Positions 27,440 through 63,063 of a stretch of DNA of 64,000 nt are shown here, in pieces. Numbering within the stretch: the first letter of the stretch is position 1; the number at the start of each line of letters is the position of its first letter. The position numbers and the translations under genes are program-made. Location of the stretch: assembly GCA_016234925.1 (NCBI GenBank), contig JACRNI010000024.1, forward strand, positions 6,555-70,554, in the 5' to 3' direction. This DNA comes from Deltaproteobacteria bacterium. Its GTDB lineage: Bacteria > Desulfobacterota > GWC2-55-46 > UBA9637 > GWC2-42-11. The notes beneath the pieces were generated by a model. That model saw only the letters and a program-made list of their open reading frames with translations, searched no databases and was not told the DNA's origin.

Positions 27440-28629
27440 CATTTTACAGGGCATTTTTACTGGGCATTTTATTAGGACTTTCATATCTTGCTTTTATGCG
27501 AAACAATATCTGGTTTGATACCTTTTCAATTTGGGACGATACATCCAAAAAGTCTCCAAAAAAGGCAAGGCCTCATAATAATCTCGGCGGCGCATATCAG
27601 ATGAAAGGGCTTAATAGGGAGTCTATAGAGGAATTTAAGATGACCATAAAACTTGAGCCGGGATATTCAGGCGCATACAGTAATCTTGGCGCTGCATATC
27701 TTAATATGGGGCTTTATGACGATTCTCAAAGGGAATTGATGAATGCAATAAATGTAAATCCTGCTGACGCCCGCGCATATACAAATCTCGGGGCATTATT
27801 TCATAGGAGAGGCAAATTGGTGGATGCTGTTGTTGCGTTAAGAAATGCTATAGTGATAAATCCTTATATTGCTGTTGCGCACAATAATCTTGGAAATGTG
27901 TATTTGGCATTAAATCTTTTTGAAGATGCAAAGAGGGAACTCTTTACTGCAATAAGCCTAGACCCAACCCTTGCTATGGCATATGCAAATCTTGGCTCTG
28001 TTTATATGAGGCAGGGCATGATTGACGGCGCAATGAATATGTTCAGGAAAGCAGCGGTATTAGCGCCAAATAATGCAGAGGCGCATGCAAATCTAGGCGG
28101 TATTTATGTTACAAAGGGCATGTTTGACGATGCTGAAAAAGAGTTAAAGAAAGCATTAGATATAAATCCAGATCTTTCAGATGCGCATTATAACATGGGG
28201 GTTGTATATACTAAAAGAGGTATGATAGATGCGGCAATTAGAGAATACAAAACAGCAATCTCTTTAGATCCTAATTTTATTGACAGCCGCATAAATCTTG
28301 GCGCAATATACTATGAAATAAATATGCTTGATGAGGCGGAAGAACAATTTAAGGAGGCAATCAAACTTAATAAGGATTCATTTGAGGCGCACATAAACCT
28401 TGCAAATGTATATGGTAAAAAAGGCGATATGAAAAATGCTGTTAGGGAATTGCAGATTTCCATAAAGTTAAATCCCAATTCATATGATGCGCATTACATA
28501 CTTGGTTTTGCATACGAAAAGACGGGTAATTTTAAAATGGCAAAAAATGAATATGAGACAGCGCTCAAGATAATGCCAGATGCAAGAGATGCGAAAGAGG
28601 CGCTTGCGAAACTTCTATCAAAACGGTAG
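27436..28629 (+). CDS. TPR-repeat protein with N-terminal TM anchor
   Basis: 'SPKKARPHNNLGGAY' followed by about 10 TPRs. Its stop lies inside a REP-like element. Confidence 0.7.
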   Translation: MTFYRAFLLGILLGLSYLAFMRNNIWFDTFSIWDDTSKKSPKKARPHNNLGGAYQMKGLNRESIEEFKMTIKLEPGYSGAYSNLGAAYLNMGLYDDSQRELMNAINVNPADARAYTNLGALFHRRGKLVDAVVALRNAIVINPYIAVAHNNLGNVYLALNLFEDAKRELFTAISLDPTLAMAYANLGSVYMRQGMIDGAMNMFRKAAVLAPNNAEAHANLGGIYVTKGMFDDAEKELKKALDINPDLSDAHYNMGVVYTKRGMIDAAIREYKTAISLDPNFIDSRINLGAIYYEINMLDEAEEQFKEAIKLNKDSFEAHINLANVYGKKGDMKNAVRELQISIKLNPNSYDAHYILGFAYEKTGNFKMAKNEYETALKIMPDARDAKEALAKLLSKR

Positions 28630-28675
28630 CCGCACCCTTTAAGGGTGCGTTACGCAGGCTAAAGCCTGCGGCTAC
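28625..28675. repeat. REP/BIME-like element, family B (ggtagccgc-hairpin-hairpin-gcggctac)
   Basis: Six copies: 28625, 31705, 41041, 42499, 44785, 55773. GTAG...CTAC termini; internal hairpins with TTTA loops. Confidence 0.7.
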
Positions 28676-28692
28676 AAAAAGAAAGGTTTAAA

Positions 28693-30162
28693 ATGATATT
28701 TCACGATTTAAGAGAATTTTTAAGTTTTCTTGAAAAAAAGGGCTTGCTCAAAAGAGTCAAGGCAGAGGTCTCTGCAAATCTTGAGATTGCTGAAGTCATG
28801 GACAGGCTTGTTAAGAAAAACGGGACTGCTGTTATATTTGAAAATGTCCAAGGCTATGATATTCCGGTTGTCGCAAATCTTTTCGGCACAGTTGAGAGGG
28901 TTGCAATGGGGCTGGGCATTACACTGGGCATTACAGAGGATGAACTTGCTGAAATAGGAAAATTCCTTGTCCATCTGCAAAGACCTGAACCGCCGGAAGG
29001 CATATGGGAGGCAATAAAATCAATCCCGTTTTTTGCAAAAATGCTTACGCTCGGCCCAAAGACAATTAGAAATGCGCCGTGTCAGGATGTGGTATTGGAA
29101 GGGGACAAGGTTGATTTGTCAAAATTTCCAATAATAAAATGCTGGCCAGATGATGCAGCGCCTTTAATAACATGGCCTCTAGTTATAACCCAATCGCCTC
29201 AAGGCGGTCCAATAAATGTCGGTGTTTATAGGATGCAGTATATTGATAAGAACCGCGCAATAATGAGATGGCTAAAACACAGGGGCGGAGCGCATCATCA
29301 GATGTTGTGGAAGGAAAAGGCTCAGCCAATGCCTGTTGCGGTTGCAATAGGGTGCGAGCCGGCAACAATCATTGCAGGTGTAACTCCTGTGCCGGAAAAT
29401 ATAAGCGAGTTTCATTTTGCAGGGATACTGCGGAAAAAGGCGATTGAACTTGTTGACTGCAAGACCATACCTCTAAAAGTTCCTGCAAGCGCCGAGATTG
29501 TTCTGGAAGGCATGATTTATCATGATGATTTGGCAGATGAGGGGCCATTTGGCGACCATACAGGTTATTACAATGCAAAGGAAAAATTTCCTGTGTTTCA
29601 TATAAAGTGCATAACGCACAGAAAAGACCCATTGTATCTTACAACAATAACAGGAAGACCTCCAAAAGAGGATGCAGTTATCGGCATTGCATTGAACAAG
29701 ATGTTTCTGCCGAGTCTGCAAATGCAATTCCCTGAGATTAAAGACTTCAACCTTCCGATGGAGGCGGTCTCATACAGGATTGCGGTTGTGTCCATAAAAA
29801 AGCAGTATCCCGGTCATGCAAAAAGGATTATGCTCGGCATATGGGGCATGTTAAAACAGTTTATGTATGTAAAGTATATAATAGTTGTTGATGATGATAT
29901 TGATGTCCATAACTGGAATGATGTAATATGGGCAATCTCAACAAGGGTTGACCCTGAAAGGGATACATGGACTATCAAGGATACGCCGATTGATTATCTT
30001 GATTTTTCCTCGCCTGTTGCTGAACTTGGTTCAAAGATGGGCATAGACGCAACAATGAAAAACCCCCCTGAGGTTTCACGGGAGTGGGGAGAGGTAGTGA
30101 AGATGGATAAGGAAATTATAGATTTGGTTGATAGGAAATGGAAGGAGTATGGGTTAGAATAA
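28693..30162 (+). CDS. ubiD: UbiD-family (de)carboxylase
   Basis: '[22 protein letters not shown]...[13 protein letters not shown]'; 489 aa. Confidence 0.85.
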
Positions 30163-30215
30163 TACAAAGCCCTCTCCCCTTGCGGGAGAGGGCTAGGGTG
30201 AGGAGTAATAAAACT

Positions 30216-31481: not shown

Positions 31482-31702
31482 AAATAACTGCTGACATGAT
31501 TGTTGAGGATGCCTTAACAAAATATCCTGAGACCTTGGATATATTTGTAAAACAGGGGCATTGCTTTGGGCTTCTTGCAAACCCTGTTGCAAGGAAGTCC
31601 CTTGCAAAACTTGTTACAATAGGGACTGCATGCAAACTGCATTTTATAGATATGGAAAAATTGTTAAAGGAATTGAATGAGGCGGTTGAGCCACAAAAAT
31701 AA
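31478..31702 (+). CDS. DUF1858-like small protein
   Basis: '[30 protein letters not shown]'; coupled between leuC and leuD. Confidence 0.45.
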
Positions 31703-31704
31703 TT

Positions 31705-31758
31705 GGTAGCCGCAGGCTTTAGCCTGCGGTATTTACGCAACCTAAAGGTTGCGGCTAC
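31705..31758. repeat. REP/BIME-like element, family B
   Basis: 'ggtagccgcaggctttagcctgcg...cgcaacctaaaggttgcggctac'. Confidence 0.7.
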
Positions 31759-31777
31759 ATTTCAAAATGGAGGTTCA

Positions 31778-32272
31778 ATGAGATTTAAAGGAAAGGCATG
31801 GAAGTTCGGAAAAGATATTGATACTGACCAGATTATTCCTGCAAGGTATTTGAATACATCTGACCCAAAGGAACTGGCAAAGCACTGTATGGAAGACGCA
31901 GACCCTGAATTTGTTAAAAAGATGCAGGCAGGGGATATTATTGTTGCTGACAAGAATTTTGGCTGCGGCTCATCAAGGGAACATGCGCCCATATCAATAA
32001 AGGCAGCAGGCATTTCTTGCGTGATTGCAAAGAGTTTTGCAAGGATATTTTACAGAAATTCATTTAATATGGGACTGCCTATTCTGGAATGTCCAGAGGC
32101 AGTGGATAGTATAAACGAAAGTGATGAGATAGAGGTTGATATTGATACTGGCAAGATTGTGAATCTAACAAAGAATAAAACTTTTAACAGCCAGCCAATC
32201 CCGCCGTTTATGCAGGAACTTATAAATACAGGTGGTTTGATGGAGTGGGTGAAGAAGAAAGTTAAAGCATGA
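31778..32272 (+). CDS. leuD: 3-isopropylmalate dehydratase small subunit
   Basis: '[25 protein letters not shown]'. The ORF-track start at 31703 is an artefact of read-through into the REP element. Confidence 0.9.
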
Positions 32273-32368
32273 AACGGAGAATCGGTGAAACGGAGAACCG
32301 GAGAAATATTTTTCTCCCATTCACCGTTTCCCCCATCTCCGTTTCTTTATTACAAAACAGGGGGATAT

Positions 32369-32587
32369 ATGAGAAAAGAAGGCGGCAGCAGAAGCAAGGT
32401 TGTAACAAGCGACAAACTGCAGATTGAAAATAAAACAATCTATGTGGATTTAAAGGAAAATGACGGAGGCAGGTTTCTGCAGATTGCGGAACTTTCAAAT
32501 GACAGGAGAAGCACAGTTGTAATACCGTGCAGCGGTTTGCCTGTTTTTCTTGAGTCTATTCAAAAAATAAAAAATAACATGGAATAG
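32369..32587 (+). CDS. small Pur-alpha-like (DUF3276-like) nucleic-acid-binding protein
   Basis: 'KLQIENKTIYVDLKENDGGRFLQIAE'. Confidence 0.35.
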   Translation: MRKEGGSRSKVVTSDKLQIENKTIYVDLKENDGGRFLQIAELSNDRRSTVVIPCSGLPVFLESIQKIKNNME

Positions 32588-32599
32588 GGGAAAATTTTA

Positions 32600-34509: not shown

Positions 34510-34575
34510 CTACAGGCTATAGGCAATGGGCAAGAGGCAATATGAAAAACCAATGAACCCATAGCCTATCGCCTA

Positions 34576-35421
34576 TTGCCTGTTTTTATGCGTAATATTA
34601 AAATCATCATTGAATACGAAGGCACGAATTATGCTGGATGGCAGGAGCAAAAGGAATCACCTACTATTCAGGGAACAATACAGGACAAAATAAAAATCAT
34701 AACACGCGAAGATGTCCAATTAACCGCAGCAGGCAGGACAGATGCAGCCGTTCATGCGCTTGGACAAACCGCAAATTTTTATTCAAATACCAATATAGAA
34801 TCATTTGCTTTGCAGAGGGGCTTAAACAGCCTTCTGCCGTCAGACATTGTTATAAAAAAAGTTGAGGATGCAAGTCTTGAATTTGATGCAAGGAAAGATG
34901 CAAAGAGTAAAACCTATAAATATCTCATCCTGAACAGAGCCTATCCATCAGCCGTCCATAGAAATTTTTCATGGTTTGTCCCCTATAAACTTGACATAGA
35001 TTTAATGAAAAGAGGCGCAGAGTTTCTTATAGGTGAAAAGGATTTTTCATCATTCAGGGCATCTGCCTGCGAGGCATCTCACGCAATAAGGGAGATAATT
35101 TCAATCACTATTGAAACGTTTACTAACCCCCTCACCTTAATCCTCTCCCCAGAGGGGAGAGCGGGTACCCATCCGAAGGATGGGTGGGGTGAGGGGGGAT
35201 TTTCGGAACAGAGAGAAAAAGATGACTTTATTGCTATTGAAGTTAAAGGTACGGCATTTCTGATGCACATGATTAGGATAATAGTCGGCACACTGACTTT
35301 ACTGGGCAGGGGCAAGATTTCAATTGATGATTTTAAAAATATTATTGAGGCAAAAGACAGGACAAAGGCAGGGATGACAGCGCCTCCGCATGGTTTGTTT
35401 TTAAAAGAGGTAGAGTATTAA
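34576..35421 (+). CDS. truA: tRNA pseudouridine(38-40) synthase
   Basis: 'IEYEGTNYAGWQEQ', 'AAGRTDAAVHALGQ'. Contains the in-frame repeat segment 'PLTLILSPEGRAGTHPKDGWGEGG'. Confidence 0.85.
   Translation: MPVFMRNIKIIIEYEGTNYAGWQEQKESPTIQGTIQDKIKIITREDVQLTAAGRTDAAVHALGQTANFYSNTNIESFALQRGLNSLLPSDIVIKKVEDASLEFDARKDAKSKTYKYLILNRAYPSAVHRNFSWFVPYKLDIDLMKRGAEFLIGEKDFSSFRASACEASHAIREIISITIETFTNPLTLILSPEGRAGTHPKDGWGEGGFSEQREKDDFIAIEVKGTAFLMHMIRIIVGTLTLLGRGKISIDDFKNIIEAKDRTKAGMTAPPHGLFLKEVEY
35127..35202. repeat. G-rich palindromic element, family D ('cccctcaccttaatcctctcccca..ggggagag..gggtgagggggg'), in-frame in truA
   Basis: Also at 50273..50322; partial at 30167..30202. Confidence 0.6.
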
Positions 35422-35425
35422 AAAA

Positions 35426-35484
35426 GGGTTCAAGGGTTCAAGGATTCAAGGGGTCTAGTGAAAAAACACTTCAACCCTCCACCC
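35426..35484. repeat. family C-related element (intergenic)
   Basis: 'gggttcaagggttcaaggattcaaggggtctagtg...'. Confidence 0.55.
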
Positions 35485-35492
35485 CTATTTTT

Positions 35493-36161: not shown

Positions 36162-36164
36162 GCA

Positions 36165-37193: not shown

Positions 37194-37194
37194 T

Positions 37195-38617: not shown

Positions 38618-38709
38618 GTAGGGGTTTGATTTATCAAACCCGAATATCGGGTCGGATAAATCGGGATGGGTAAGGAAAAAGGTTATTTATCCGTCCCATC
38701 GCCCCCTAC
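38618..38709. repeat. REP/BIME-like element, family F (gtagggg-hairpins-cccctac)
   Basis: Second copy at 52756..52810, with hairpins 'ggtttgatttatcaaacc' and 'ggtcggataaatccgacc' in swapped order. Confidence 0.6.
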
Positions 38710-38784
38710 ATTTTTTCGGGTTGCCTTGCTCCGCCTTGCATCTGGGCAATTTTTGAGCGTCAACTTTGCATATAGGGAGACCTC

Positions 38785-39561
38785 TTGGCAGAAATAATTA
38801 CATTTGTGACTGTCTTTGCCTTTGGCGCCTCTATCGGCAGTTTTTTAAATGTCTGCATCTATAGAATACCTGAAGGTAAATCTATAATATCCCCTCCATC
38901 GTCTTGTCCAAACTGCAGCAACCCAATCCGATTCTATGACAATATTCCAATAATAAGTTACCTAATACTTTTTGGCAGATGCAGGAATTGCAAGGCGTCT
39001 ATCAGCATCCAATATCCTATTGTTGAGGCATTGACAGGTTTCTTTGCTGTCCTTATTTTATATTATTTTGGATTTACCATTGATGGTTTAATATATTTTT
39101 TATTTATTGCCAGCCTTATTGTAATCACATTCATTGATTTAAAACTTCAAATCATACCTGATATTATAAGTCTGCCGGGAATAATCGTAGGATTTATATG
39201 CTCATCTTTTTTGCTTCCAACAGGTTTTATAAATTCTCTTTTGGGCATATTTCTTGGCGGCGGCAGTCTTTTTCTTGTTGCATACGGCTATAAAAAAGTT
39301 GCAGGCATAGAAGGCATGGGAGGCGGGGATATAAAACTCATTGCAATGGTCGGCGCATTTTTGGGCTGGAAGGCTGTTATAATGACGATATTTGCAGGCT
39401 CGTTTGTTGGCGCAATAATAGGCACGATTGCAATGCTGATTCAAGGGAAAGATACAAAATATGCAATACCATTCGGGCCGTTTCTGGCATTAGGCGCTGC
39501 GCTTTATCTATTCATTGGACAGGATTTTATCAACTGGTATGTAAGGGTAATGTGGAGATGA
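38785..39561 (+). CDS. pilD: prepilin peptidase (A24 family)
   Basis: 'CPNCSNPIRFYDNIPIISYLILFGRCRNC'; catalytic Asp-containing TM core. Confidence 0.9.
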   Translation: MAEIITFVTVFAFGASIGSFLNVCIYRIPEGKSIISPPSSCPNCSNPIRFYDNIPIISYLILFGRCRNCKASISIQYPIVEALTGFFAVLILYYFGFTIDGLIYFLFIASLIVITFIDLKLQIIPDIISLPGIIVGFICSSFLLPTGFINSLLGIFLGGGSLFLVAYGYKKVAGIEGMGGGDIKLIAMVGAFLGWKAVIMTIFAGSFVGAIIGTIAMLIQGKDTKYAIPFGPFLALGAALYLFIGQDFINWYVRVMWR

Positions 39562-41057
39562 CAAAACTTGGTCTTCGTCCAAAGATTATTATAAATATTG
39601 CAATTATCACTGTTGCGGCAATCATGCTAATCGGCATCATAAGCATAAAAATCATTGAAAGGGATGCCTTTGCGAGAAAGATAAAAAATGGCGAGGAGAT
39701 TATAAAATCTATCAGGTTTTTCTATCAAGAGACCGACGGCGTAAATATCAGCAGATTTATTTCTGCAAGGACTGATATTGAAGGTTTAATAATATTAAAT
39801 GAGGATAAAAGGGCAATATTTAATTATGGCAATATAAAGCATGACAGCATTGATAATGTTTTTTACAACACAGAGATTATAAAGAATATTATCAGCAAAG
39901 ACAGAATAATATTTTTAAGCGGCGTTAAGATAGGCGGAAAAACGGCTTCCATAAGGCTTTCATTATCCCTTGCCGATGTCAACATTGACATTGCAAGCAC
40001 GCGAAGATTTATCATTTTTTATGCCTTTCTGGACAGCATACTAATTATAATCTTTGGCGCATTTTTAATTCACAAATCAGTTATAAGACCAATAAAGGCG
40101 CTTGATATAACTGCCAAAGATATAGCAGACGGCAATCTTGATAAAAGGGCGGCGGTTGCTGCTGGGGATGAGATAGGCAGCCTTGCATTGTCATTCAATG
40201 CAATGACAGACAAACTTAAATCAAATATAAATATGCTTGAACGTATGAATAGGGAACTTGTCGCAGCGCAGGATGATTTGCTCCGTTCTGAAAAACTTGC
40301 AACAGTCGGAAGACTCTCTGCGGGTATTGCACATGAAATCGGCAATCCTTTGGGAGCGATATTGGGTTATATAAACATACTTCAAAAAGGTATTGCAGAT
40401 AAGACAGAAGAAAAAGAAATTTTAAATAGGCTTGATAAAGAGACATCCCGAATAAATGTTATAATTAAAGAGTTTCTTGCTCTTTCAAGACCATCTGAAA
40501 GACAGGGAATAATTGGCAGAGGACAATCTGCTGCAAATGTAAATAAAGTTATAGATGAATCTATCAAATCTATCAGGGCAGTTGCATTTAAGGATAATTT
40601 TAAAATTGAATTGAATTTAGAGAATGGGCTGCCTTTTGCCAAGATTGAAGCGGATAAACTTGAACAGGTTCTTATAAATATATTATTAAATGCAAAGGAT
40701 GCGATGCATAATGGCGGCTTAATCAAGATAGAGACAGGGCTTGCAAATATTGCTGCAAAAGAGCCGGTTCACAGAAGGCAGAGCGACATCTCTGACATGG
40801 ATGTTTTATCTCTCAGAAAAGGGAAGGAAATGATTGGCATTAAAATATCTGACACAGGCTGCGGCATAAAAAAAGAGGATATTGGCAAAATATTTGACCC
40901 GTTTTGGACAACAAAAGATGTCGGCAAAGGCACAGGGTTGGGGCTTACTGTTTCACTTGGCATTGTTCAGACATACGGCGGTGATATAAAGGTGAAAAGC
41001 GAGGCAGATAAAGGAACAACATTTGAAATCCTTCTGCCATGTAGCCGCAACCTTTAG
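39552..41057 (+). CDS. sensor histidine kinase with HAMP domain (PilS-like by context)
   Basis: HAMP 'IRPIKALDITAKDIADGNL'; H-box 'GIAHEIGNPLGAI'; 'GTGLGLTVS'. Confidence 0.7.
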   Translation: MEMTKLGLRPKIIINIAIITVAAIMLIGIISIKIIERDAFARKIKNGEEIIKSIRFFYQETDGVNISRFISARTDIEGLIILNEDKRAIFNYGNIKHDSIDNVFYNTEIIKNIISKDRIIFLSGVKIGGKTASIRLSLSLADVNIDIASTRRFIIFYAFLDSILIIIFGAFLIHKSVIRPIKALDITAKDIADGNLDKRAAVAAGDEIGSLALSFNAMTDKLKSNINMLERMNRELVAAQDDLLRSEKLATVGRLSAGIAHEIGNPLGAILGYINILQKGIADKTEEKEILNRLDKETSRINVIIKEFLALSRPSERQGIIGRGQSAANVNKVIDESIKSIRAVAFKDNFKIELNLENGLPFAKIEADKLEQVLINILLNAKDAMHNGGLIKIETGLANIAAKEPVHRRQSDISDMDVLSLRKGKEMIGIKISDTGCGIKKEDIGKIFDPFWTTKDVGKGTGLGLTVSLGIVQTYGGDIKVKSEADKGTTFEILLPCSRNL

Positions 41058-41097
41058 GTTACGTTGTGAATATCGCAGGCTAAAGCCTGCGGCTACC
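41041..41097. repeat. REP/BIME-like element, family B
   Basis: Supplies the stop codon of the kinase gene. Confidence 0.7.
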
Positions 41098-41107: not shown

Positions 41108-42466
41108 ATGAGAATCTTAATCATTGACGATGAAGAATCCATGCGGCACATGCTCTCTTTGATATTGAAAAAAGAGGGCTATGATGTTGTCTGTGCTGAT
41201 AATGCCAAGCAAGCCCTTAATGTATTGGCTAAACAAGAGTTTGGTTTCATCCTCTGTGATATAAAAATGCCAGAGATGGATGGTCTTGAGTTCTTAAAGT
41301 CTTTACTAGCCCCTTGCCCCTTACCCCTATCCCCTGTAGTTATTATGATGTCCGCCTACGGCACAATTGACACTGCAATTGAGTGCATGAAACTCGGCGC
41401 ATACGACTATATCTCAAAGCCGTTTAAGTCTGATGAGATTATTCTTACATTAAAAAAGGCGGAAGAGCGGGAAAGATTGAGAAGGGAAAATTTAAGGCTT
41501 AAACACAGCATTGCAAGAGAATATAATTTTGAAAATATTATTACAAAAAGCAAAGAGATGCTGGATGTCTTTAATCTTATAAAAAAGGTTTGCGATTATG
41601 ATACAACAGTTTTGATTACAGGGGAGAGCGGCACAGGAAAGGAACTTGTTGCAAGGGCGATACATTACAGCGGCGCAAGAAAGGATAAACCATTTATTGC
41701 TGTAAACTGCGGCGCAATACCTCATGCCCTTATTGAGAGCGAACTATTCGGACATATTAAAGGCGCTTTCACAGATGCAATAAAAACAAAGGCAGGGCTT
41801 TTTGAAGAGGCTGACAAAGGGACGCTCTTTCTTGATGAAATCGGCGAATTGCCGGCTGATATGCAGGTAAAGTTGCTGCGGGTCTTGCAGGAAGGCGAGG
41901 TAAGAAAAGTTGGGGACACTAAATCAATAAAAATAGATGTCAGGGTCATTTCAGCGACAACAAAAAATCTTTTAGAAGAAATAAAAAAAGGCAGTTTTAG
42001 AGAAGACCTTTTTTACCGTTTGAATGTTGTAGAAATCCATCTGCCGTCTTTGAGGGAAAGGCAGGACGATATACCTATTCTTGCAGATTATTTCCTGAAA
42101 AGGCACTGTATGAAATTTAGTAAGAATATAAGCATGATAGATAAAGATGCTATGGATTTACTTTTAAGTTATAAATGGCAGGGAAATGTGCGTGAACTGG
42201 AAAATGTAATAGAGAGGGCAGTGATATTGGAAGATACAGATGTGATAACTCCAAATAGTCTGCCGTTTCTGAAACAGACACCAGACACTAGACACCAGAC
42301 ACTAGACAAGGCAATGCTTTCCATAAAAAAGGCAGAGGAGTCAATTGAAAAAGAACTCATAAAAAAGGCGCTTGATATGACGAGTGGCAACAAGACCCAT
42401 GCGGCAAAACTCCTTGAAATAAGCCATCGGGCGCTTTTGTATAAAATCAAGGAGTATGGGTTATAA
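41108..42466 (+). CDS. pilR: sigma-54-dependent response regulator (PilR-like by context)
   Basis: REC domain; 'GESGTGKE'; 'GAFTDA'; Fis HTH. Short in-frame 'APCPLPLS' segment in the REC domain. Confidence 0.75.
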   Translation: MRILIIDDEESMRHMLSLILKKEGYDVVCADNAKQALNVLAKQEFGFILCDIKMPEMDGLEFLKSLLAPCPLPLSPVVIMMSAYGTIDTAIECMKLGAYDYISKPFKSDEIILTLKKAEERERLRRENLRLKHSIAREYNFENIITKSKEMLDVFNLIKKVCDYDTTVLITGESGTGKELVARAIHYSGARKDKPFIAVNCGAIPHALIESELFGHIKGAFTDAIKTKAGLFEEADKGTLFLDEIGELPADMQVKLLRVLQEGEVRKVGDTKSIKIDVRVISATTKNLLEEIKKGSFREDLFYRLNVVEIHLPSLRERQDDIPILADYFLKRHCMKFSKNISMIDKDAMDLLLSYKWQGNVRELENVIERAVILEDTDVITPNSLPFLKQTPDTRHQTLDKAMLSIKKAEESIEKELIKKALDMTSGNKTHAAKLLEISHRALLYKIKEYGL

Positions 42467-42498
42467 AGACAGGGGGCAAGGGTCAAGGGGTCAAAAAG

Positions 42499-42556
42499 TG
42501 GTAGCCGCAGGCTTTATGCCTGCGAAATATCGCACCCATAAAGGGTGCGGCTACCT
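42499..42556. repeat. REP/BIME-like element, family B
   Basis: Preceded by GGGTCAAGG 9-mers at 42466..42498. Confidence 0.7.
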
Positions 42557-43350: not shown

Positions 43351-43366
43351 TGGCATTATAATTGCT
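43351..43366 (+). promoter_or_regulatory. sigma-54 promoter (-24 TGGCAT / -12 TTGCT) upstream of the minor-pilin operon
   Basis: TGGCAT-tataa-TTGCT, matching the TGGCAC-N5-TTGCW spacing; downstream of the PilR-like activator. Confidence 0.5.
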
Positions 43367-43379: not shown

Positions 43380-43484
43380 GTAGTTGCCCAATCCTGCCCC
43401 TGCAGGCTGTAAGCAGGGGTCATTGGGCTGTAGTCGCCGACTTTCAGGTCGGCGGACAAAGCGGACATAAATGTCCGCAACTAC
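43380..43484. repeat. REP/BIME-like element, family I (gtagttgcc-hairpins-gcaactac), in the pilin-operon leader
   Basis: Second copy at 51524..51577. Confidence 0.55.
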
Positions 43485-44784: not shown

Positions 44785-44838
44785 GTAGCCGCAACCTTTA
44801 GGTTGCGTAAAATACCGCAGGCTAAAGCCTGCGGCTAC
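44785..44838. repeat. REP/BIME-like element, family B
   Basis: Between the PilV-like gene and the giant pilin gene. Confidence 0.7.
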
Positions 44839-49316: not shown

Positions 49317-49415
49317 AAATTTGCAGTAAGTAGGGTGGGCTTTGCCCACCAAAAAAGGAAAACATATATATCGGTGGGCAATGCCAACCTTACCACTGAT
49401 GATGGATGAAACAGC

Positions 49416-50222: not shown

Positions 50223-51518
50223 ATGAATAATAAAATTAAAAACCAAAACGGCATTGAATTAAAGCCTTCATCGCCCCTCACCTTAATCCTCTCCCCAAAG
50301 GGGAGAGGGCGGGGTGAGGGGGGCTTTGCCCTTGTTGTAACCCTTCTTCTGATGGTCTCAATATCTCTGATAGGGCTTCTTGCGCTTATGAACGCATCAA
50401 CAGAGACCCTTATTGCAAGGAATGAGAAAGAGCAGAAAATTGCATTCCAACTTGCAGAGGCAGGGCTTAACGAGACGTATGCAAGGCTGCATGTTACAGG
50501 AGGTAATTATATAGGGGAGCCGTCAGGTACTACAACAAGGACTGGCGATGCTGTAGTGGGTAGTGGCATCGCGGCAGGCAGTAGTAGTACAAGCGGAGGT
50601 TTAAATACAGCAAGTGCATCAACAGGTCAATATAGTGTTGTAATAACATATTTGGCAGAGAATTCAACTGATGCATTTTGTAACGGCGGCACATGGGATG
50701 TCCCTACTGATACTGTATATACTGTAGACACCGCCGCCCAATGCACTGGCGCGACAGCAGTTTTGTTTGGTCATGACTTTGGCTTTCCTTATAATATGAG
50801 CCCAAGACCGCCCTTAACAGGCAGAAATCCTGTTTATAAGATTACATCCACTGGGACATATGGCAATACAAACGTTTCATTATATTCGTATATCCCGTCA
50901 ATCGGCCTTAATATTGACCCGGAGGCTGCTGTGTATTCTACTGGTGGTTTGGATGTTAATGGCAACGATACAATCACTGGTGGGGCAAAGTATTGCACCA
51001 CCTATGATGCATCAGGTACTAATACTATATCTCCTGCCGCTACTCCGATTACATCTAATTGTCTTGTTATGGATACATTTATTGGTTATTCTAAATCTGA
51101 ATTATGGAGTATGGCTGATGTGAAGGTAGTTGGCGACGGCGGCGCTGGACTGAAAACTACAGTAACAGACCCTGCGAATGCGGATAAGATTATATTTGTT
51201 GATAATGATGCTGCTGCTGGACCAAGCAGTAACACGACTGCTTCAAATGCGAATATAAATACCAATCAATCCGGAAGCGGTATTTTGATTGTTACCGGCG
51301 ACTTAGCTGTTGGCGGAGGTTTTACATGGACAGGCTTGATATATGTATTCGGCACATTGACTACGAGTGGAAATGTTACGGTAACCGGCGCTGTGGTAGC
51401 AGGAGGCACAGAGGTCACACTGAATGGCACTGTAACTGTAACCTATGACCAGGATGTCCTTAATAATCTGGGGAAAAAGAACAGCACCTCCAGCCTTATC
51501 AGGTGGAGCAGGCAGTAG
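50223..51518 (+). CDS. PilX-like type IV pilus minor pilin with repeat-derived N-terminal leader
   Basis: PilX_N-like 'GFALVVTLLLMVSISLIGLLALMNASTETLIARNE'. The leader 'PLTLILSPKGRGRGEGG' is encoded by the family D repeat. Confidence 0.6.
   Translation: MNNKIKNQNGIELKPSSPLTLILSPKGRGRGEGGFALVVTLLLMVSISLIGLLALMNASTETLIARNEKEQKIAFQLAEAGLNETYARLHVTGGNYIGEPSGTTTRTGDAVVGSGIAAGSSSTSGGLNTASASTGQYSVVITYLAENSTDAFCNGGTWDVPTDTVYTVDTAAQCTGATAVLFGHDFGFPYNMSPRPPLTGRNPVYKITSTGTYGNTNVSLYSYIPSIGLNIDPEAAVYSTGGLDVNGNDTITGGAKYCTTYDASGTNTISPAATPITSNCLVMDTFIGYSKSELWSMADVKVVGDGGAGLKTTVTDPANADKIIFVDNDAAAGPSSNTTASNANINTNQSGSGILIVTGDLAVGGGFTWTGLIYVFGTLTTSGNVTVTGAVVAGGTEVTLNGTVTVTYDQDVLNNLGKKNSTSSLIRWSRQ
50273..50322. 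repeat. family D G-rich palindromic element, inside the CDS 5' end
   Basis: Same as 35127..35202. Confidence 0.6.
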
Positions 51519-51523: not shown

Positions 51524-51577
51524 GTAGTTGCCGAGCTTGCTCGGCAGATAAATCAGCCAACCAAGGTTGGCAACTAC
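51524..51577. repeat. REP/BIME-like element, family I
   Basis: 'gtagttgccgagcttgctcggcag...ccaaccaaggttggcaactac'. Confidence 0.55.
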
Positions 51578-51658
51578 AGCCATGTTTCTACGTTTTCTGT
51601 TGTGTGTCTGCCCAATTTATTGGGCGTATTTAAAGACGCCGATAAATCCGCTAGGCTA

Positions 51659-52755: not shown

Positions 52756-52810
52756 TGTAGGGGTCGGATTTATCCGACCTGATATGCGGGTTTGATAAAT
52801 CAAACCCCTA
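52756..52810. repeat. REP/BIME-like element, family F
   Basis: See 38618..38709. Confidence 0.6.
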
Positions 52811-52816
52811 CAATCT

Positions 52817-55714: not shown

Positions 55715-55772
55715 ATACAGGCAATAGGCGATAGGCTATAGGTGATATATGTCTAGGGGGTTCAAGGGATAT

Positions 55773-55827
55773 GGTAGCCGCAACCTTTACGGTTGCGTTT
55801 TTTCGCAGGCATAAAGCCTGCGGCTAC
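55773..55827. repeat. REP/BIME-like element, family B
   Basis: Preceded by 'gggggttcaaggg'. Confidence 0.7.
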
Positions 55828-55853
55828 CTAGAACCCTACTAATTTATAAGGTA

Positions 55854-56240: not shown

Positions 56241-56246
56241 CGATAT

Positions 56247-56336
56247 GATTACACCGATTATAAAGGCAGATTACACAGATTAAAGCAAAATAGTAGTTTT
56301 AATCTGCGTAATCGTTTTTCAAAATCTGTGTAATTA
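56247..56336 (+). repeat. family G repeat, copy 3
   Basis: See 17906..18004. Confidence 0.55.
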
Positions 56337-56493
56337 TTGACTCCTGTAATATTATAATGTCCTATTCTCGCTTTGTTTGTCATTCCGCACTTGATGCGGA
56401 ATCCAGTCTTTTGCATAAGTATCTGGATTCCCGTTTTCACGGGAATGACGGACATGGGACATTTCTTATACAGTTTTCAATAGTTAAAAAAGG

Positions 56494-59179
56494 ATGATAA
56501 CCATTCATACAAAAAATATTTTTCCAGTTCAAGACAAACCGCTATTTGATGACATAGAGTATCTAAAAAATATCCTTTATCAAGCGCTTGCTGAACAAGC
56601 AGGCAGCCGTTTTCTAAAAATCATAGATAATCTAACCGCTGCCAGCTTAAAACACCCAATCAAAACCCAACTCCCAAATATGATAAGGCAGATTGATATG
56701 ACCATATCCAATCAGGTTATACAGGCATATGCAATAAATTTTCAATTGACAAATCTTGCTGAGGAAAATTTTGGCATGCAGGATAGGCGGCGGCTAATTA
56801 AGAATGGAATGTCTGTGTCCGGCTCTATTGAAGACTGTATAAGCACATTTAAGAAAAACGGCATTTCACCCCGTGCAATAGAAAAGATGCTTGCAAGACT
56901 CTCCATAGTGCCTGTGATTACGGCGCATCCGACAGAGGTAAAGAGGCGGACAGTCCTTGAAAAGCACAGAAATATATATCTCACAATATTCAAGAAAGAA
57001 AACCCAATCTGGACGACAAGGGAAAGGGATTTGTTAAGGGACAATATATTGGGCGATGTTTTAAAACTCTGGCACACAGGCGACATAAGGCTTGAAAAGC
57101 CCAATATAGAGGAAGAGGTTGAAAACGGCCTTTTCTATTTTAATAAAACATTTTTTGAGGTTCTGCCGAAACTGTATGATGAACTAAAATTTCAATTAAG
57201 TAAATATTATCCTGACTATGATTTTAAAATCCCGCAAATCTTGTCATTTGGAAGCTGGGTCGGCGGGGACAGGGATGGAAATCCATTTGTAACAAGTAAA
57301 AAAACAAGATGGACATTTAAGAGGCATAAGGAACTTATTCTGTCAAAATATATTGAAACTGTTTCAAGTTTGATCTCAAGGCTCAGCATCTCAAGACATC
57401 TTGTTTCTGTAAGTAAAGAAATACTTACATCAATCAAAGAAGATGCAATAAACATGGGTATTGATGGGCAGACGCTCATCAGCAGAAATCCGCACGAGCC
57501 GTACAGGCAGAAACTTTCTCTTATAAAAAGGAAACTGGAAAATACATTAAAAACAGGGTCAAGGGTCAATCGTCAAGGGTCAAGGGTAGAAGAAACTGTA
57601 ACTCAAGGCTTTAGCCTTGAAGGCATCAAACCTGAAGGTTTGAGTTACAGATGTTGTAAAGACAGGGTATCTTGCCTTGCCGGAGCATGAAAAAATCAAA
57701 ATATTGTCAAAAGAACTTTTGAGCATAAGGCCCCTTGTGCCTGTTTACAGCCATATTACAGAAGAGACCAGAGAGGTTTTGAACACGTTTAAAAGCATCA
57801 AAGAGGCTCAGGAAGAGATTTCATGGGATGCTGTCGGCTCATATATAATCAGCATGACACACCATGCAAGCGATGTTTTGACGCTGCTGCTCCTTGCAAA
57901 AGAGGTTGGTCTTTGCGGCATAGACGGCGACGGCAGGGTATTTAACAGGATTGATATAGCGCCTTTATTTGAAACAATCGGTGATTTGCAGAGACTGCCG
58001 AAGATATTGAATGACCTGTTTAATAATGAGACATACAAAAGGTATCTTGCAGAAAGGGATGATGTTCAAGAGATTATGCTGGGTTATTCGGACTCATGCA
58101 AAGACGGCGGCATACTTACATCCAACTGGGAATTATACAAGGCGCAGAAAAAAATCACCGCGATTGGGATGGACTGCGGCGTAAACATCAGACTGTTTCA
58201 CGGTAGAGGCGGGACAGTGGGCAGGGGAGGGGGACCAACACATAAGGCAATCCTTGCGCAGCCAAAAGGCACTGTTAACGGCTATATAAAAATGACAGAG
58301 CAGGGCGAGGTCATATCTTCAAAATATGCTAATCTTGGGACAGCGGCATATAACCTGAATCTGCTTGCTGCCGGAGTTATGGAGGCAGCAATAGAAACAG
58401 GGGCAAGGGGCAAGGGGCAGAGGTCAAGAAAAGAAAAGATTTATGAGGATGCGTTTGAGAAAATATCTGAAATATCCTACAGACTATACAGGGAATTGAT
58501 TGAGGATAAAGATTTCCTCACATACTTTGAGCAGGCAACGCCGATTGATGAACTTGAACATCTAAAAATCGGTTCAAGGCCAAGTTATAGGTCAGCCCCT
58601 GATAGATTCAATCAGGGGTTGCCTGACATTAAAAAAGTTGAGGATTTAAGGGCGATTCCTTGGGTTTTTTCATGGAACTTGTCAAGGCATATTATACCGG
58701 GCTGGTATCCGTTTGGCTCTGCAATAAAAAACTGGGTCAAGGGTCAAGGGTCAAGGGACAAGGGGAAAAAACTTTTAAAAGAGATGTATAGAGACTGGTT
58801 ATTCTTCTCTAACCTCGTTGACAATATCCAGATGGTCATTGCAAAGGCAGATATGGATATTGCTAAACTCTACGCCTCTCTTGTAAAGGATAAAAGTGTA
58901 AGAGATGGGATTTATAAAAAAATCAAAAAAGAGTTTGATTTAACCGTTAAAATGATTTTAATGATTACAGGGCAGAAAAATATATTGGATAATGACAAAT
59001 TCTTGCAGCGGTCAATAAATTTAAGAAGGCCAAATATTGACCCTGTTGATTATATGCAGGTGGATTTAATAAGAAAGATAAGGGATAAAAATATAAAGGG
59101 AGAGAAAAGGCAGAGGGTCATAAAAACACTTATGGCAAGCATAAACTGCATATCAGCAGGACTAAGAAATACTGGATGA
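56494..59179 (+). pseudogene. ppc: phosphoenolpyruvate carboxylase, frameshifted at ~57640 next to a GGGTCAAGG repeat insertion
   Basis: 'VITAHPTEVKRRTV' in ORF1; 'GYSDSCKDGG' and 'FHGRGGTVGRGGGP' in ORF2 (TTG-start frame). Repeat-encoded 'GSRVNRQGSRV' and 'GQGSRDKG' segments. Confidence 0.8.
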
Positions 59180-59189
59180 GGAATACGGG

Positions 59190-60917
59190 ATGAGAAAAGA
59201 CAGGGTCAATAGTCAATGGTCAAGGGTAAGTAGAAACATGGCTTTAGCCATGTTAATTAACAGGTCTAAAGACCTGTTTCTACATCTTACATCTCACATC
59301 TTACATCTTACGCTGCTTATTACTGTTTTAACATCCTGCACCAATCCCTCTATCTCCAGCAATTTACCAGATGTCAAAGACAAAACCCCTGCCCACGGCG
59401 ACACAATCATTGAAGGGCTTGGCGCTGAGCCGACTGTCTTGATACCTGTTCTTGCGCAGGACACTGCATCCCATGATGTTGCAGGGCTTGTATTCAATGG
59501 TCTTGTAAAATATGACAAGGACTTGAGTCTAATCGGAGATTTGGCAGAATCATGGGAGATTTCAAAAGACGGGCTTATAATAACATTCCATTTGAGAAAA
59601 GGAGTTAAGTGGACAGACGGCATTGAATTTACAGCAGAGGATGTTTATTTCGGATACAAGACGATTATAGACGAGAAGACGCCGACTGCGTACAAAGAGG
59701 ATTTTTTACAGGTTAAAAATGCAGAGGTCATTGACAAATATACTTTTAGAGTAACTTATGAAAAACCATTTGCGCCAGCCTTGTCAACATGGGGGAGTCT
59801 GCCAATCCTTCCCAAGCATTTGCTGGAAGGCAAGGATATAACAAAGAGTGATTTGGGAAGAAAACCCCTCGGCATGGGGCCATTCATATTCAAGGAATGG
59901 GTTGCAGGACAGAAGGTTGTTTTAGATTCAAACCATGATTATTTTGAAGGCAGACCATATATTGACAGATACATCTACCGCATAATCCCTGACCCTGCAA
60001 CAATGTTTCTTGAATTAAAAACAGGCGCAATTGACTGGATGGGGCTTACACCGCTTCAATTCACAAGGCAGACAGACACACCATATTTTAAAAATAATTA
60101 CAAAAAATACAGATACCCTGTATTTGTTTATACATACATGGGATTTAATCTGAAAGACCCTAGATTTAAAGATAAAAAAATCAGACAGGCGATTGCACAT
60201 GCAATTGACAAAGAGGAGATTGTTAATGGCGTCTTGTTCGGTCTCGGCAGTCCTGCAACAGGGCCATATGTCCCTAACACATGGGTCTATAATCCGAATG
60301 TTAAAAAATATGTATATAATTTAGAAAAGGCAAAGCAACTATTAAAAGATGCTGGCTGGGCAGATACCAATGGAGACGGCATACTTGACAAAAACGGCAG
60401 ACCATTTGAACTTACAATCTCAACAAGCGTTGGAAACACAACAAGAATCAAGGTTGCAACAATAATCCAGTGGAGGCTCCAGAAAATCGGCATCAAGGTA
60501 ACCATTCGCACTTATGAATGGTCAACATTTATAAATGAAAGAATCAACAAGAAAAGATTTGAGGCAGTGATTTTAGGCTGGAGCATAGGTCTTGACCCTG
60601 ACCAGTATGACATATGGCACTCAAGCAAGACAAAGGAAAAGGAATTTAATTTTATAGATTACAAAAATCCCGAGATAGATGAGTTGCTTGAAAAAGGCAG
60701 ACGCACATTTGATATAGAAGAAAGAAAAAAGGCATATTTCAGGATTCAAGAGATTTTGGCAGACGATGTGCCTTACATATTTTTATATGTGCCTGATGCG
60801 CTTGTGATTATAAACTCAAGGTTTCAGGGCATTGAACCCGCTCCCATCGGCATAAGTTACAACCTACATAAATGGTATGTGCCAAAGGAGATGCAGAAAT
60901 ACAGGATGGCGCCGTGA
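59190..60917 (+). CDS. ABC transporter substrate-binding protein, family 5 (Opp/Dpp-like) lipoprotein
   Basis: Lipobox 'LTSC'; SBP_bac_5-like body. The annotated 5' end runs through repeat elements, so the true start is uncertain. Confidence 0.75.
   Translation: MRKDRVNSQWSRVSRNMALAMLINRSKDLFLHLTSHILHLTLLITVLTSCTNPSISSNLPDVKDKTPAHGDTIIEGLGAEPTVLIPVLAQDTASHDVAGLVFNGLVKYDKDLSLIGDLAESWEISKDGLIITFHLRKGVKWTDGIEFTAEDVYFGYKTIIDEKTPTAYKEDFLQVKNAEVIDKYTFRVTYEKPFAPALSTWGSLPILPKHLLEGKDITKSDLGRKPLGMGPFIFKEWVAGQKVVLDSNHDYFEGRPYIDRYIYRIIPDPATMFLELKTGAIDWMGLTPLQFTRQTDTPYFKNNYKKYRYPVFVYTYMGFNLKDPRFKDKKIRQAIAHAIDKEEIVNGVLFGLGSPATGPYVPNTWVYNPNVKKYVYNLEKAKQLLKDAGWADTNGDGILDKNGRPFELTISTSVGNTTRIKVATIIQWRLQKIGIKVTIRTYEWSTFINERINKKRFEAVILGWSIGLDPDQYDIWHSSKTKEKEFNFIDYKNPEIDELLEKGRRTFDIEERKKAYFRIQEILADDVPYIFLYVPDALVIINSRFQGIEPAPIGISYNLHKWYVPKEMQKYRMAP
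59230..59283. repeat. REP/BIME-like element, family E (gtagaaac-hairpin-hairpin-gtttctac)
   Basis: Inverted copy at 63015..63063; hairpins 'aacatggctttagccatgtt' and 'aacaggtctaaagacctgtt'. Confidence 0.65.
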
Positions 60918-61254
60918 CATGACAACTGTTTCGTTTCTTAAAACATCGTTTTGCGAAACAGTATTGACAAAATGAGCCACAATTATTTGTTTATGAGAAA
61001 AATTCAATGCTTTGTTGCCTGTGCTTTCGGGAAAAAGGATGTTGATGAGGTTTATAATAAGGCGATAAAACAAGTGCTTAAAGAATTTAAAATAAGAGTT
61101 GATAAGATAAATCATTAAATTGTGGTGTGGGATAAACAGAAGATTACATTCCTGTCTGTGTGCATGCACCCACAGTCAGAGAGCGGATTATTGCGCAGTG
61201 TTGCAAGGAATAATGATATAATTTGGCAGCCAATAGCAAAAGAGGAGATATTTT

Positions 61255-61572
61255 ATGGACATTGAGATTTATTTAAAAGAGGCTATAAAAAGAATTATAA
61301 GCGAGTTTAATCCATATAAAATAATTCTCTTTGGCTCTTACGCTTATGGGACGCCGACCAAGGACAGCGATATTGACCTGATGGTTGTAATGGATACTGA
61401 TATGAAACCCTATGAAAGATCGCTTCCCATCAGAAAAACCCTGAAATATCTTGGGATGCCAAAGGATGTTATTGTAAGGACCCCGCAGGAGTTTGAGAGA
61501 TTTAAGGATATTGTTGGAACTATAATTTATACCGCTGCTCATAAAGGAAAGGTGATCTATGAAAAGCGATAA
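61255..61572 (+). CDS. nucleotidyltransferase (MNT-type antitoxin)
   Basis: 'LFGSYAYGTPTKDSDIDLMVV'. Confidence 0.75.
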   Translation: MDIEIYLKEAIKRIISEFNPYKIILFGSYAYGTPTKDSDIDLMVVMDTDMKPYERSLPIRKTLKYLGMPKDVIVRTPQEFERFKDIVGTIIYTAAHKGKVIYEKR

Positions 61573-61963
61573 GATAAATGCAGTAAACGCATGGCTCAAA
61601 AAAGCTGAAAACGATATCAGAACCGCTGAATATATTATGACTATGGATGATCCGCCTTATGATACCGTTTGTTTTCATGCTCAGCAATGCGCCGAAAAGT
61701 ATATTAAAGGCTTTTTTACATTTCATGAGATAGATTTTCCTAAAACGCATTCCATTGAAGACCTTGTTTTATTATGTAAGGATATTGCGCCATCCCTTGA
61801 ATCAGAGATTGGAGATGTTGAGGTTTTATCAATTTATGCGGTTGAGACAAGATACCCTTCTGAAATGTACTATGAAATCCCTAAAGAAAAGGCAAGCGAA
61901 GCCATAGAATTTGCAAAAAAGGTTAAATCTGTTATTTTAAAGTATCTTGAAGATAAAATCTAA
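61559..61963 (+). CDS. HEPN-domain protein (toxin partner of MNT)
   Basis: HEPN-like helices '[14 protein letters not shown]'; overlaps the MNT gene. Confidence 0.7.
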
Positions 61964-61965
61964 CC

Positions 61966-62940
61966 ATGCTTACCTATCTATTTAAAAAACTCCTTGAAAT
62001 GCTCCCAACCCTTATAGGGATTACTTTGCTCTCGTTTTTTATAATCCATCTTGCGCCCGGAAAGCCCACAGATATTATGGCTGATTTGAATCCAAAGATT
62101 ACGCCTGAGGCAAGGGAAAGGCTTGAGAAATATTACGGACTTGATAAACCTGTAATTGTCCAGTACGGCATATGGCTCAAAAGGATTGTCAAACTTGATT
62201 TTGGAGAGTCATTCTCTGCTGATAAAAGGCCTGTGTGGGATAAAATCAAAGAGAGGCTGCCGATAACAATACTCATAAATTCACTTTCACTGGTTTTGAT
62301 ACTTTTGATTGCAATCCCAATAGGCGTCTCATCTGCAACGCATCAGTATTCTTTATATGACAGGTTCACAACAGTTTTTGTATTTCTGGGTTTTGCAATC
62401 CCAACATTCTGGCTTGCGCTTTTGCTCATGATTTTATTCGGCGTAAATCTTGGCTGGCTTCCTATTTCAGGCATAAAGTCTTTGGATTACGAGGGTCTTT
62501 CATTTATCAGCAAAATCTGGGATAGAGTCAGCCATTTGATACTCCCGATTTTTCTTGAGGCATTCGGCGGTCTTGCAGGACTTTCCAGATATATGCGTTC
62601 AAACATGCTTGAGGTGGTAAGGCAGGATTACATAACAACAGCAAGGGCAAAGGGTCTGCCAGAATCAAAGGTCATTTACAAACATGCCTTGCGGAATGCG
62701 CTGCTGCCAATCATCACAATACTTGGTCTTTCTGTTCCGGGACTTATTGGCGGAAGCGTTATATTTGAGACAATATTTTCAATCCCAGGCATGGGACAGT
62801 TATTTTATACAGGCGTTATAACAAGGGATTATCCTTTGATAATGGGGATTCTGACAATAGGCGCAATATTGACTTTAGCAGGTAATTTATTGGCAGATAT
62901 TGGGTATGCGATAGCAGACCCCCGCATAAGAACAAGGTAA
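61966..62940 (+). CDS. ABC transporter permease (OppB/DppB-like)
   Basis: '[24 protein letters not shown]'; 6 TM. Confidence 0.85.
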
Positions 62941-63014
62941 GGACAAGATAGTTGACGCTGAAAAACGCCCATCTGCTGTGTTGTCGCTGCGGCTTCTTCG
63001 CTCAACATACAAGC

Positions 63015-63063
63015 GTAGAAACAGGTCTTTAGACCTGTTATTTAACTAAAGCCATGTTTCTAC
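63015..63063. repeat. REP/BIME-like element, family E (inverted copy)
   Basis: Followed by a 40-nt motif, 'ccttgcatctg.gc.atttttgagc.tcaactt', also found at 38727..38775. Confidence 0.65.

Follow-up and report, generated by a model that had tools for sequence, protein, structure and literature searches.

What are the short double hairpins that lie between the genes of an uncultivated 'Deltaproteobacteria' lineage, and how might they have come to be there? The question is raised by a 64,000-nt stretch of contig JACRNI010000024.1 (assembly GCA_016234925.1), hereafter called the window, in which an earlier note had distinguished four families of such elements (B, E, F and I), likened them to repetitive extragenic palindromes (REPs) and bacterial interspersed mosaic elements (BIMEs), and predicted a REP-associated tyrosine transposase (RAYT) elsewhere in the genome. 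At least 14 elements on one shared plan were located between 28.6 and 63.1 kb of the window, which has at least five co-resident GTAG REP families. We consider it likely that these elements are GTAG-tagged REPs arranged as head-to-head dimers, resembling BIMEs or the REP doublets known as REPINs, and therefore of a known kind.

Enrichment and anatomy of GTAG-headed doublets

Hairpins with a perfect stem of at least 7 bp and a loop of 3–6 nt were collected from the window in a blind census. GTAG stood at the 5′ foot of 22 of the 122 hairpin sides, where 0.65 were expected, and CTAC headed none of the 122; the observation is therefore real, and GTAG-headed doublets far exceed chance. The window held 25 perfect hairpins with a GTAG head, and six doublets with an outer inverted repeat of 3 bp or more (0–1 in 20 shuffles).

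Each unit consists of an unpaired 5′ GTAG, 0–2 nt, a perfect stem of 7–8 bp and a TTTA-type loop, and each doublet consists of two inverted units with their GTAGs outermost and a spacer of 3–16 nt between them. The B unit is composed of GTAG, CCGC, a 4-nt core, TTTA, the complementary core and GCG(N), and this layout recurs, on other stems, in family E (GTAGAAAC...), family F (GTAGGGGT...) and family I (GTAGTTGCC...). The architecture of paired, inverted GTAG-headed hairpins, which the earlier note had compared with REP/BIME elements, was confirmed, with covariation, the lack of target-site duplication and the extragenic sites all in agreement. Its four families also stand, but not as unrelated ones: the head, the stem length and a mostly TTTA loop are common to all of them, and B is tied to a GTAAC variant and a GTAGTGCG variant seen in relatives. 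B and these two variants are linked via compensatory changes at the stem base (CCGC, TGCG and CTCA), with the upper stem AGGC/AACC and the TTTA loop kept in all three.

A strict pattern for family B, GTAGCCGC-N4-TTTA-N18-30-TAAA-N4-GCGGCTAC, matched all six copies in the window and gave no match in 100 dinucleotide-preserving shuffles; the six positions given earlier differed from ours by 0–2 nt. For each of the other three families, one of the two copies listed was recovered as a doublet (E at 59230, intact; F at 52757–52811, intact; I at 51524). The second E copy (63015) has a truncated right unit, the right arm of the second F copy (38618) is interrupted by ∼40 nt, and the second I copy (43380) turned out to be a three-hairpin composite having only the outer GTAGTTGC...GCAACTAC in common with the family. 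All elements are listed in Table 1.

The pairing of the B stems was evaluated in a non-redundant set of 118 B doublets, taken both from the window and from other genomes; the search pattern left the 4-nt core and its partner unconstrained. The core was perfectly complementary in 214 of 236 units, with 15 complementary core types. Among 53 distinct units, 94% of the cells paired, compared with 23–47% in slid controls, and the stems contained 54 double-sided changes against 13 in shuffles, none of 500 shuffles being as high. Complementarity of the core, the paired fraction and the double-sided changes together indicate that the B hairpin is under constraint.

As a single strand, a doublet can adopt either one long REPIN-like hairpin or a two-hairpin Y shape of near-equal energy (z-scores of −5 to −8). 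The long hairpin was the minimum-energy fold for most copies, but since the two arms usually differ, the Y shape comes close to it in energy. Inverted doublets prevailed over other arrangements, and heterodimers of two unlike units accounted for 96 of the 118 doublets. The pairings AGGC+AACC, AGGC+ACCC and AGGC+AGGC were found 39, 24 and 18 times, respectively, and AACC+AACC, ACCC+ACCC and AACC+ACCC were all absent from this set.

Insertion sites and turnover among relatives

Conservation of family B ends two bases beyond the element, with Y-K preceding GTAG and M-R following CTAC, and the dinucleotides that most often precede it are TG, TT, CT and CG. No excess of target-site duplications was found at B copies, where 3, 2, 0 and 0 duplications of 2, 3, 4 and 5 nt were observed against 7.3, 1.8, 0.5 and 0.1 expected, respectively. 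Copies lay outside long open reading frames (ORFs) in 101 of 114 cases, and those assigned a gene arrangement were found between co-directional (44), convergent (18) and divergent (13) genes. In the window, copies sit at gene ends, with one exception at a break in the ppc gene. The order of the two units in heterodimers was not biased relative to transcription (17:22, p = 0.52), which speaks against the view that the element exists chiefly for a strand-specific role in RNA. The B spacer, variable at 3–16 nt and with a GC content that follows the host, lacks a conserved inter-REP motif. A T-run, as expected after the GC-rich hairpin of an intrinsic terminator, follows none of the B, E, F or I doublets, and Rfam gave no match at the elements, whether the gathering threshold or a limit of E ≤ 5 was applied.

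Among named relatives, Deltaproteobacteria bacterium GWC2_42_11 is the nearest, with a LeuC 91% identical to that of the window. At the junction of the DUF1858 gene and leuD, the window has a full B doublet, whereas GWC2_42_11 (L116) has an intact left unit and a decayed right unit, a third relative (L204) has GTAAC-type units, and two relatives with 87% LeuC identity (L205 and L206) have zero intergenic DNA. L205 also carries the doublet GTAGTGCG-AGGC-TTTA.../...AACC....

Distribution of family B

Searching a species-representative genome collection with the strict B pattern returned more than 110 matching stretches. The matches listed derive from ∼69 assemblies with labels of at least 13 phyla, including Planctomycetota (Brocadiales, Gemmataceae), Verrucomicrobiota, Nitrospirota, Nitrospinota, Omnitrophota, Aerophobetes, Brevinematales, Anaerolineae, Gamma- and Betaproteobacteria, Syntrophaceae/Deltaproteobacteria, the candidate phyla radiation (Uhrbacteria, Magasanikbacteria), Ignavibacteria/Chlorobiaceae, Zixibacteria and WOR-3. 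Other genomes contributed 5–10 B loci each among the 110 matches listed, and the cores AGGC, AACC, ACCC and GGGC were identical throughout these hosts. The GC content of the host loci ranged from 33 to 73%. Spacer GC rose and fell with that of the host locus (Spearman 0.70, p = 2e-17), but the B arms remained unchanged, a pattern that speaks against contamination of bins and favours resident elements with uniformly maintained arms.

No B match was found in a plasmid collection. Only 3 of 2.9 million viral contigs carried B, and phage carriage was accordingly rejected. Neither E nor F turned up in 1.48 Mb of other DNA; there, family I was restricted to GWC2_42_11 and the GTAAC type to L204. Family B is thus a lineage of the class that is present in many phyla, and the DNA sampled yielded E, F, I and the GTAAC type from the window's organism or from close relatives alone.

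Some B loci showed further repetition. Tandem clusters that repeat flanking DNA were found in L003 and L060, and units repeated within a coding region in L019. The array in L003, with its period of 95 nt, could be mistaken for a CRISPR, a reading rejected because its 'spacers' are repeated flanking DNA. The tandem B units of L019 lie inside an 863-aa ORF, taken for an exopolysaccharide chain-length protein, and encode SRNLQVAPGES repeats; at 2500–5100 of the same locus, B doublets flank a small gene pair resembling a DUF433/DUF5615 toxin–antitoxin, as judged from the ORF translations alone. In a metagenome-assembled genome (MAG) of Brevinematales (L002, L030, L034, L059, L100 and L105), a B doublet is nested in an identical palindromic repeat of ∼115 nt, GTTGTCGCTAAATT...AATTTAGCGACAAC, at which the contigs of this MAG break.

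Candidate partner enzymes

Genes for a partner enzyme were sought by motif regular expressions, by phmmer with Escherichia coli RayT, with a composed RAYT probe sequence and with a 16-sequence profile. E. coli RayT itself had no match to Pfam Y1_Tnp, and Pfam alone is therefore not a sensitive RAYT detector. Weak matches to a glycosyltransferase (L052), an unrelated ORF (L038) and a PIN-like protein (L050) were dismissed, and the only proteins recurring beside B were ABC ATPases and response regulators.

The composed probe retrieved a very widespread RAYT clade ('YDYSQ'; N-terminus RRSIRLKGYDYSQ) with 50–80% identity across phyla. This clade is tied to GTAGGGGC...GCCCCTAC palindromes in 4 + 80 loci; the 80, which are from metagenomes, span 616 kb and contain 290 GTAG hairpins, 247 of them GTAGGGGC-type units. 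A chimeric query, in which a RAYT was given a B-derived linker peptide, returned 45 candidates, none of them with B.

In this clade, the GTAGGGGC...GCCCCTAC palindrome was also found inside the RAYT coding region itself (L120 1818–1845, L121 4275–4302, L122 4302–4329 and L123 538–565; proteins P0121–P0240), where it encodes a linker, GRGT(LQ/AR)RAPT or VGARxxVPL, and often also a C-terminal tail. The RAYT genes of L120 and L122 lie between hsdS and hsdR of a type I restriction–modification operon.

Comparison with known REP systems

The GTAG-tagged REP superfamily, including head-to-head dimers, was defined by Di Nocera et al. (2013, PMC3733652). Its members are short stem-loop repeats of 20–40 bp. 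The elements of the window share with it an unpaired GTAG beside a stem-loop of 6–13 bp, the presence of several families per genome, the outermost position of GTAG in dimers, sub-families that differ by complementary stem changes, tandem clusters with flanking DNA, and intergenic sites with occasional copies inside genes. Degenerate heads are likewise common to both, GTRG or GTMG in the published set and GTAA in the window. They differ in that the published loops are mostly 2–3 nt long whereas TTTA/TTTAN dominates here, and in that hosts of the window type are uncultivated lineages outside the 2013 survey. The exact B sequence does not occur in the text or supplements of that paper (Figure 1 apart), and a text search of the literature for it returned unrelated primer matches only.

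Like the REP/BIMEs of E. coli, the doublets have a GTAG foot and sites after stop codons within operons, and their combination of AGGC with AACC or ACCC recalls the inverted Y/Z REP pairs. E. coli REPs are, however, imperfect palindromes with a bulge whereas the units here are perfect over 7–8 bp (group-3 style, PMC8266576), and in contrast to BIMEs the doublets have no conserved spacer motif and no cognate gene found in the DNA sampled. The REPINs of Pseudomonas fluorescens (Bertels and Rainey) also consist of two inverted REPs able to form one long hairpin, and here too, spread seems to proceed by whole doublets; unlike REPINs, the present elements have a nearly isoenergetic Y-shaped fold and usually non-identical arms, and B is common to many phyla.

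Units very close to the window families were found among REPs flanking tnpA-REP genes (Quentin et al. 2018, PMC6006769, Table S1). Those of subclass 2.4 include Aequorivita GTAG[G/C]CGCGCGA-TTTA-TCGCGCGC, Aggregatibacter GTAGGGACAGAC-TTTAT-GTCTGTCC and Cyanothece GTAGGGGTTTAAC..., and those of subclass 2.7 include GTAGTGCGAGCATCTTGCTCGC. They resemble the window elements in their GTAG, perfect stems of 7–9 bp and loops of 3–5 nt, including TTTA and TTTAT. Aequorivita GTAGCCGCGCGATTTATCGCGCGC has GTAGCCGC and the loop in common with B, the Cyanothece sequence resembles family F, and GTAGTGCGAGCATCTTGCTCGC resembles family I and the variant of L205. No unit among them is an exact match to any of the four window families, and the association with a gene is observed there but inferred for the window families. 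In Haemophilus, the REP GTAGGGTGGGCTTtAGCCCACC is nearly the same as the window unit at 49330 (PMC2817692); tnpA-REP genes are taxonomically patchy, consistent with horizontal transfer followed by loss (PMC2817692).

REP-Sm/SMAG of Stenotrophomonas maltophilia is a 23-nt unit that likewise comprises GTAG, a perfect 8-bp palindrome and a short loop (PMC8266576), although its loop is 3 nt long and differs in sequence, and its cleavage dinucleotide CT stands beside only 27 of 236 B heads, TG and TT being commoner. The S. maltophilia TnpA-REP critically requires the loop and the upper stem and tolerates changes in the bottom 3 bp (Corneloup et al. 2021, PMC8266576). The parts so required are those conserved among B and its variants, namely the TTTA loop and the AGGC/AACC upper stem.

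Origin of the elements

Several observations weigh against identifying the doublets as REP dimers mobilized by a RAYT. The local density of ∼14 elements in 36 kb is a count for the window alone and not a genome-wide copy number, and among the relatives, one has no unit at all in 21 kb and another has a single doublet only. No Y1 HUH or RAYT gene was found in the window, 110 B loci and five relative loci (909 kb in all); as ∼0.2 such genes would be expected at one gene per genome, this absence neither supports nor refutes the RAYT prediction of the earlier note. The RRSIRLKGYDYSQ clade was rejected as the partner of B, with no B unit in its 84 loci. MAG bins can be contaminated. REPIN–RAYT pairs are described as vertically inherited, and the near-identity of B across at least 13 labelled phyla fits poorly with inheritance by that route alone.

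The doublets could instead be structured RNA elements selected within operons as mRNA 3′-end protectors, attenuators or processing sites, rather than mobile DNA. Consistent with such a role, all six B copies of the window lie between co-directional genes and 0–40 nt past a stop codon, one composite element lies in a sigma-54 leader, the predicted folds are very stable, and conservation is seen in the arms but not in the spacers, which drift with the GC content of the host. Transcription does not, however, orient the heterodimers, copies also occur between convergent and divergent genes, and neither a U-tract nor even a sub-threshold Rfam match accompanies them. The same site is empty or occupied by other families in close relatives, and copies in tandem clusters or nested in other repeats are what mobile repeats typically show. 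On these grounds, we regard selection at the RNA level as unlikely to account for the elements.

Mobile DNA of another type, miniature inverted-repeat transposable elements (MITEs) derived from a DDE-type insertion sequence, would explain why the elements are short, multicopy and intergenic and why their outermost 8 nt are inverted repeats of each other; GTAGCCGC...GCGGCTAC would then be the termini. We hold this origin to be very improbable: target-site duplications are lacking, the conserved head is GTAG and is common to families with otherwise different termini, each half is a hairpin with covariation, and no transposase recurs near the copies. A binding or landing site for a nucleoid protein, gyrase, or a REP-targeting insertion sequence or intron, with B conserved via a host factor, would account for arms that are nearly invariant in hosts of 33–73% GC and for the lack of a cognate RAYT in the DNA sampled. 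E. coli REP/BIMEs are reported to bind gyrase, integration host factor (IHF) and DNA polymerase I, and IHF binds the spacer in BIME-1. The B spacer, however, is not conserved, the element is entirely absent from related genomes (L119), and we know of no factor common to all these phyla that needs such a sequence, making a host-factor site quite improbable, if somewhat less so than a MITE. The RNA-level, DDE-MITE and host-factor explanations are all less well supported than the identification as REPs.

If the doublets are REP dimers, the most likely mechanism, judged from their anatomy and from the characterized systems of E. coli, S. maltophilia and Marinomonas, is hairpin formation, after which a TnpA-REP/RAYT enzyme would cut and rejoin the DNA. 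The units would fold into hairpins on single-stranded DNA, for example on the lagging-strand template. An HUH-Y1 nuclease of the TnpA-REP/RAYT family would then bind the loop and upper stem of a unit, take GTAG as a guide and cut at a nearby dinucleotide, and rejoining of the strands would copy the doublet into new intergenic sites without target duplication.

We also propose, tentatively and with more doubt than confidence, that all B doublets belong to one REPIN lineage, carried horizontally into at least 13 phyla as heterodimers of AGGC with another unit whose arms stay nearly invariant, with a partner other than the 'YDYSQ' RAYT clade. Candidates for this partner are an undescribed Y1 subclass and an enzyme that acts in trans.

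Effects on neighbouring genes and gene calls

The gene-end effects described in the earlier note all proved correct. The TAG stop of a TPR gene (ORF 27436–28629) is the TAG of the GTAG of the B copy at 28626, and a histidine-kinase ORF (39552–41057) stops at the TAG within 'TTTAG', the first loop of the B copy at 41041. ORF 31703–32272 has a false leuD N-terminus, a TTG extension that reads through the B copy at 31706, the true start being the ATG at 31760 behind GGAGG. The composite element at 43380–43484 does lie in a sigma-54 leader, between the promoter and a GspH-like pseudopilin gene. As stable RNA hairpins within operons, resident doublets may affect mRNA 3′ ends or stability.

The PEP carboxylase gene ppc (56494–59179) is split into two ORFs in different frames, which match positions 3–354 and 440–919 of Pfam PEPcase, respectively. 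The break (57553–57676) coincides with a GGGTCAA heptamer array and the GTAAC double hairpin. A pseudogene, an error of assembly or a split that the cell tolerates could each account for the broken ppc.

Table 1. Repeat elements and associated features of the window
Feature	Position	Strand	Description
Family B doublet	28626..28675	.	cores ACCC + AGGC; 17 nt upstream of ubiD
Family B doublet	31706..31758	.	AGGC + AACC; between DUF1858-like ORF and leuD
Family B doublet	41041..41096	.	AACC (one stem mismatch) + AGGC; upstream of sigma-54 response regulator gene
Family B doublet	42501..42554	.	AGGC + ACCC, TTTAT loops; 3′ of response regulator gene; preceded by GGGTCAA-type heptamer array
Family B doublet	44785..44838	.	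AACC + AGGC; between pseudopilin-like gene and 1486-aa ORF
Family B doublet	55774..55827	.	AACC + AGGC, 5-nt loops; upstream of response-regulator gene
Family E doublet, intact	59230..59283	.	GTAGAAAC-ATGGC / AGGTC, TTTA loops; overlaps start of ORF 59190–60917; preceded by heptamer array
Family E doublet, damaged	63015..63063	.	right unit lacks 5′ half of stem
Family E orphan right-half fragment	51578..51591	.	AGCCATGTTTCTAC; abuts family I doublet; missing from the earlier list
Family F element	38618..38709	.	GTAGGGGTTTGA-TTTA...; 3′ of pyruvate kinase; ∼40 extra nt break right arm
Family F doublet, intact	52757..52811	.	GTAGGGGTCGGA / GTAGGGGTTTGA, TTTA loops; between two minus-strand lptF/lptG-like genes
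Family I doublet	51524..51577	.	GTAGTTGCCGAGC-TTG... / GTAGTTGCCAACC-TTG...; overlaps 3′ end of PilX-like ORF 50223–51518
Three-hairpin composite	43380..43484	.	inside GTAGTTGC...GCAACTAC; contains inner doublet 43430–43484
GTAAC...GTTAC doublet	57597..57650	.	upper stems AGGC/AACC as in family B; at ppc frame break; missing from the earlier list
Single unit	49330..49350	+	GTAGGGTGGGC-TTT-GCCCACC; 3′ of 1486-aa ORF; missing from the earlier list
Single GTAGC + 11-bp hairpin	1064..1094	+	after ORF 9–1067; class membership uncertain; missing from the earlier list
Sigma-54 promoter	43351..43366	+	perfect consensus TGGCATTATAATTGCT; context only, outside repeat
Heptamer arrays	42463–42495, 57546–57591, 58390–58435, 58724–58769, 59193–59228		
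8-mer AAGGGTTC arrays (x3–4)	21396–21487, 21600–21691, 23338–23429, 23542–23633, 35415–35466		

Other repeats in the window

The five heptamer arrays each contain 3–5 copies of GGGTCAA or GGGGCAA behind an A-rich 'AAAAACAG' lead; three are immediately 5′ of a GTAG or GTAAC doublet, and two are in frame in the second half of ppc. At the first four AAGGGTTC sites, an inverted array of GACCCCTA-like 8-mers comes next, forming long imperfect palindromes in a duplicated gene region at 21–25 kb. A motif of ∼40 nt, CCTTGCATCTG(G/T)GC(A/G)ATTTTTGAGC(G/A)TCAACTTT, was found at 38722–38766 and 63066–63105, directly 3′ of the F element at 38618 and the E element at 63015, respectively; it is upstream of the next gene at both sites and may be a promoter or operator.

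The intergenic stretch 1069–1251, starting from the GTAGC-headed 11-bp hairpin, is a conserved non-coding region with 82.6% identity to L081 7458–7664, from another groundwater Deltaproteobacteria MAG, and has no Rfam match. Downstream, at 32271–32345, leuD is separated from the following ORF by a long palindrome that gave sub-threshold Rfam matches to microRNA precursors on both strands. A double hairpin at 56379–56449, within outer inverted repeats GTCATTCCGC...GGGAATGAC and without a GTAG head, may belong to a different repeat class.

Implications

Recognizing these repeats improves gene calls in this lineage, where they give rise to false stops, false N-terminal extensions and possibly the split ppc. 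The B doublet is almost unchanged across very distant phyla, with the spacer alone adapting to the host. If B is indeed a horizontally spread lineage, no REP family described would have a wider distribution, and B would stand as an exception to strictly vertical inheritance of REPIN–RAYT pairs. Family B is in addition a convenient marker for asking whether REP–RAYT systems move horizontally, and which parts of a REP the enzyme reads, namely the loop and upper stem rather than the stem base.

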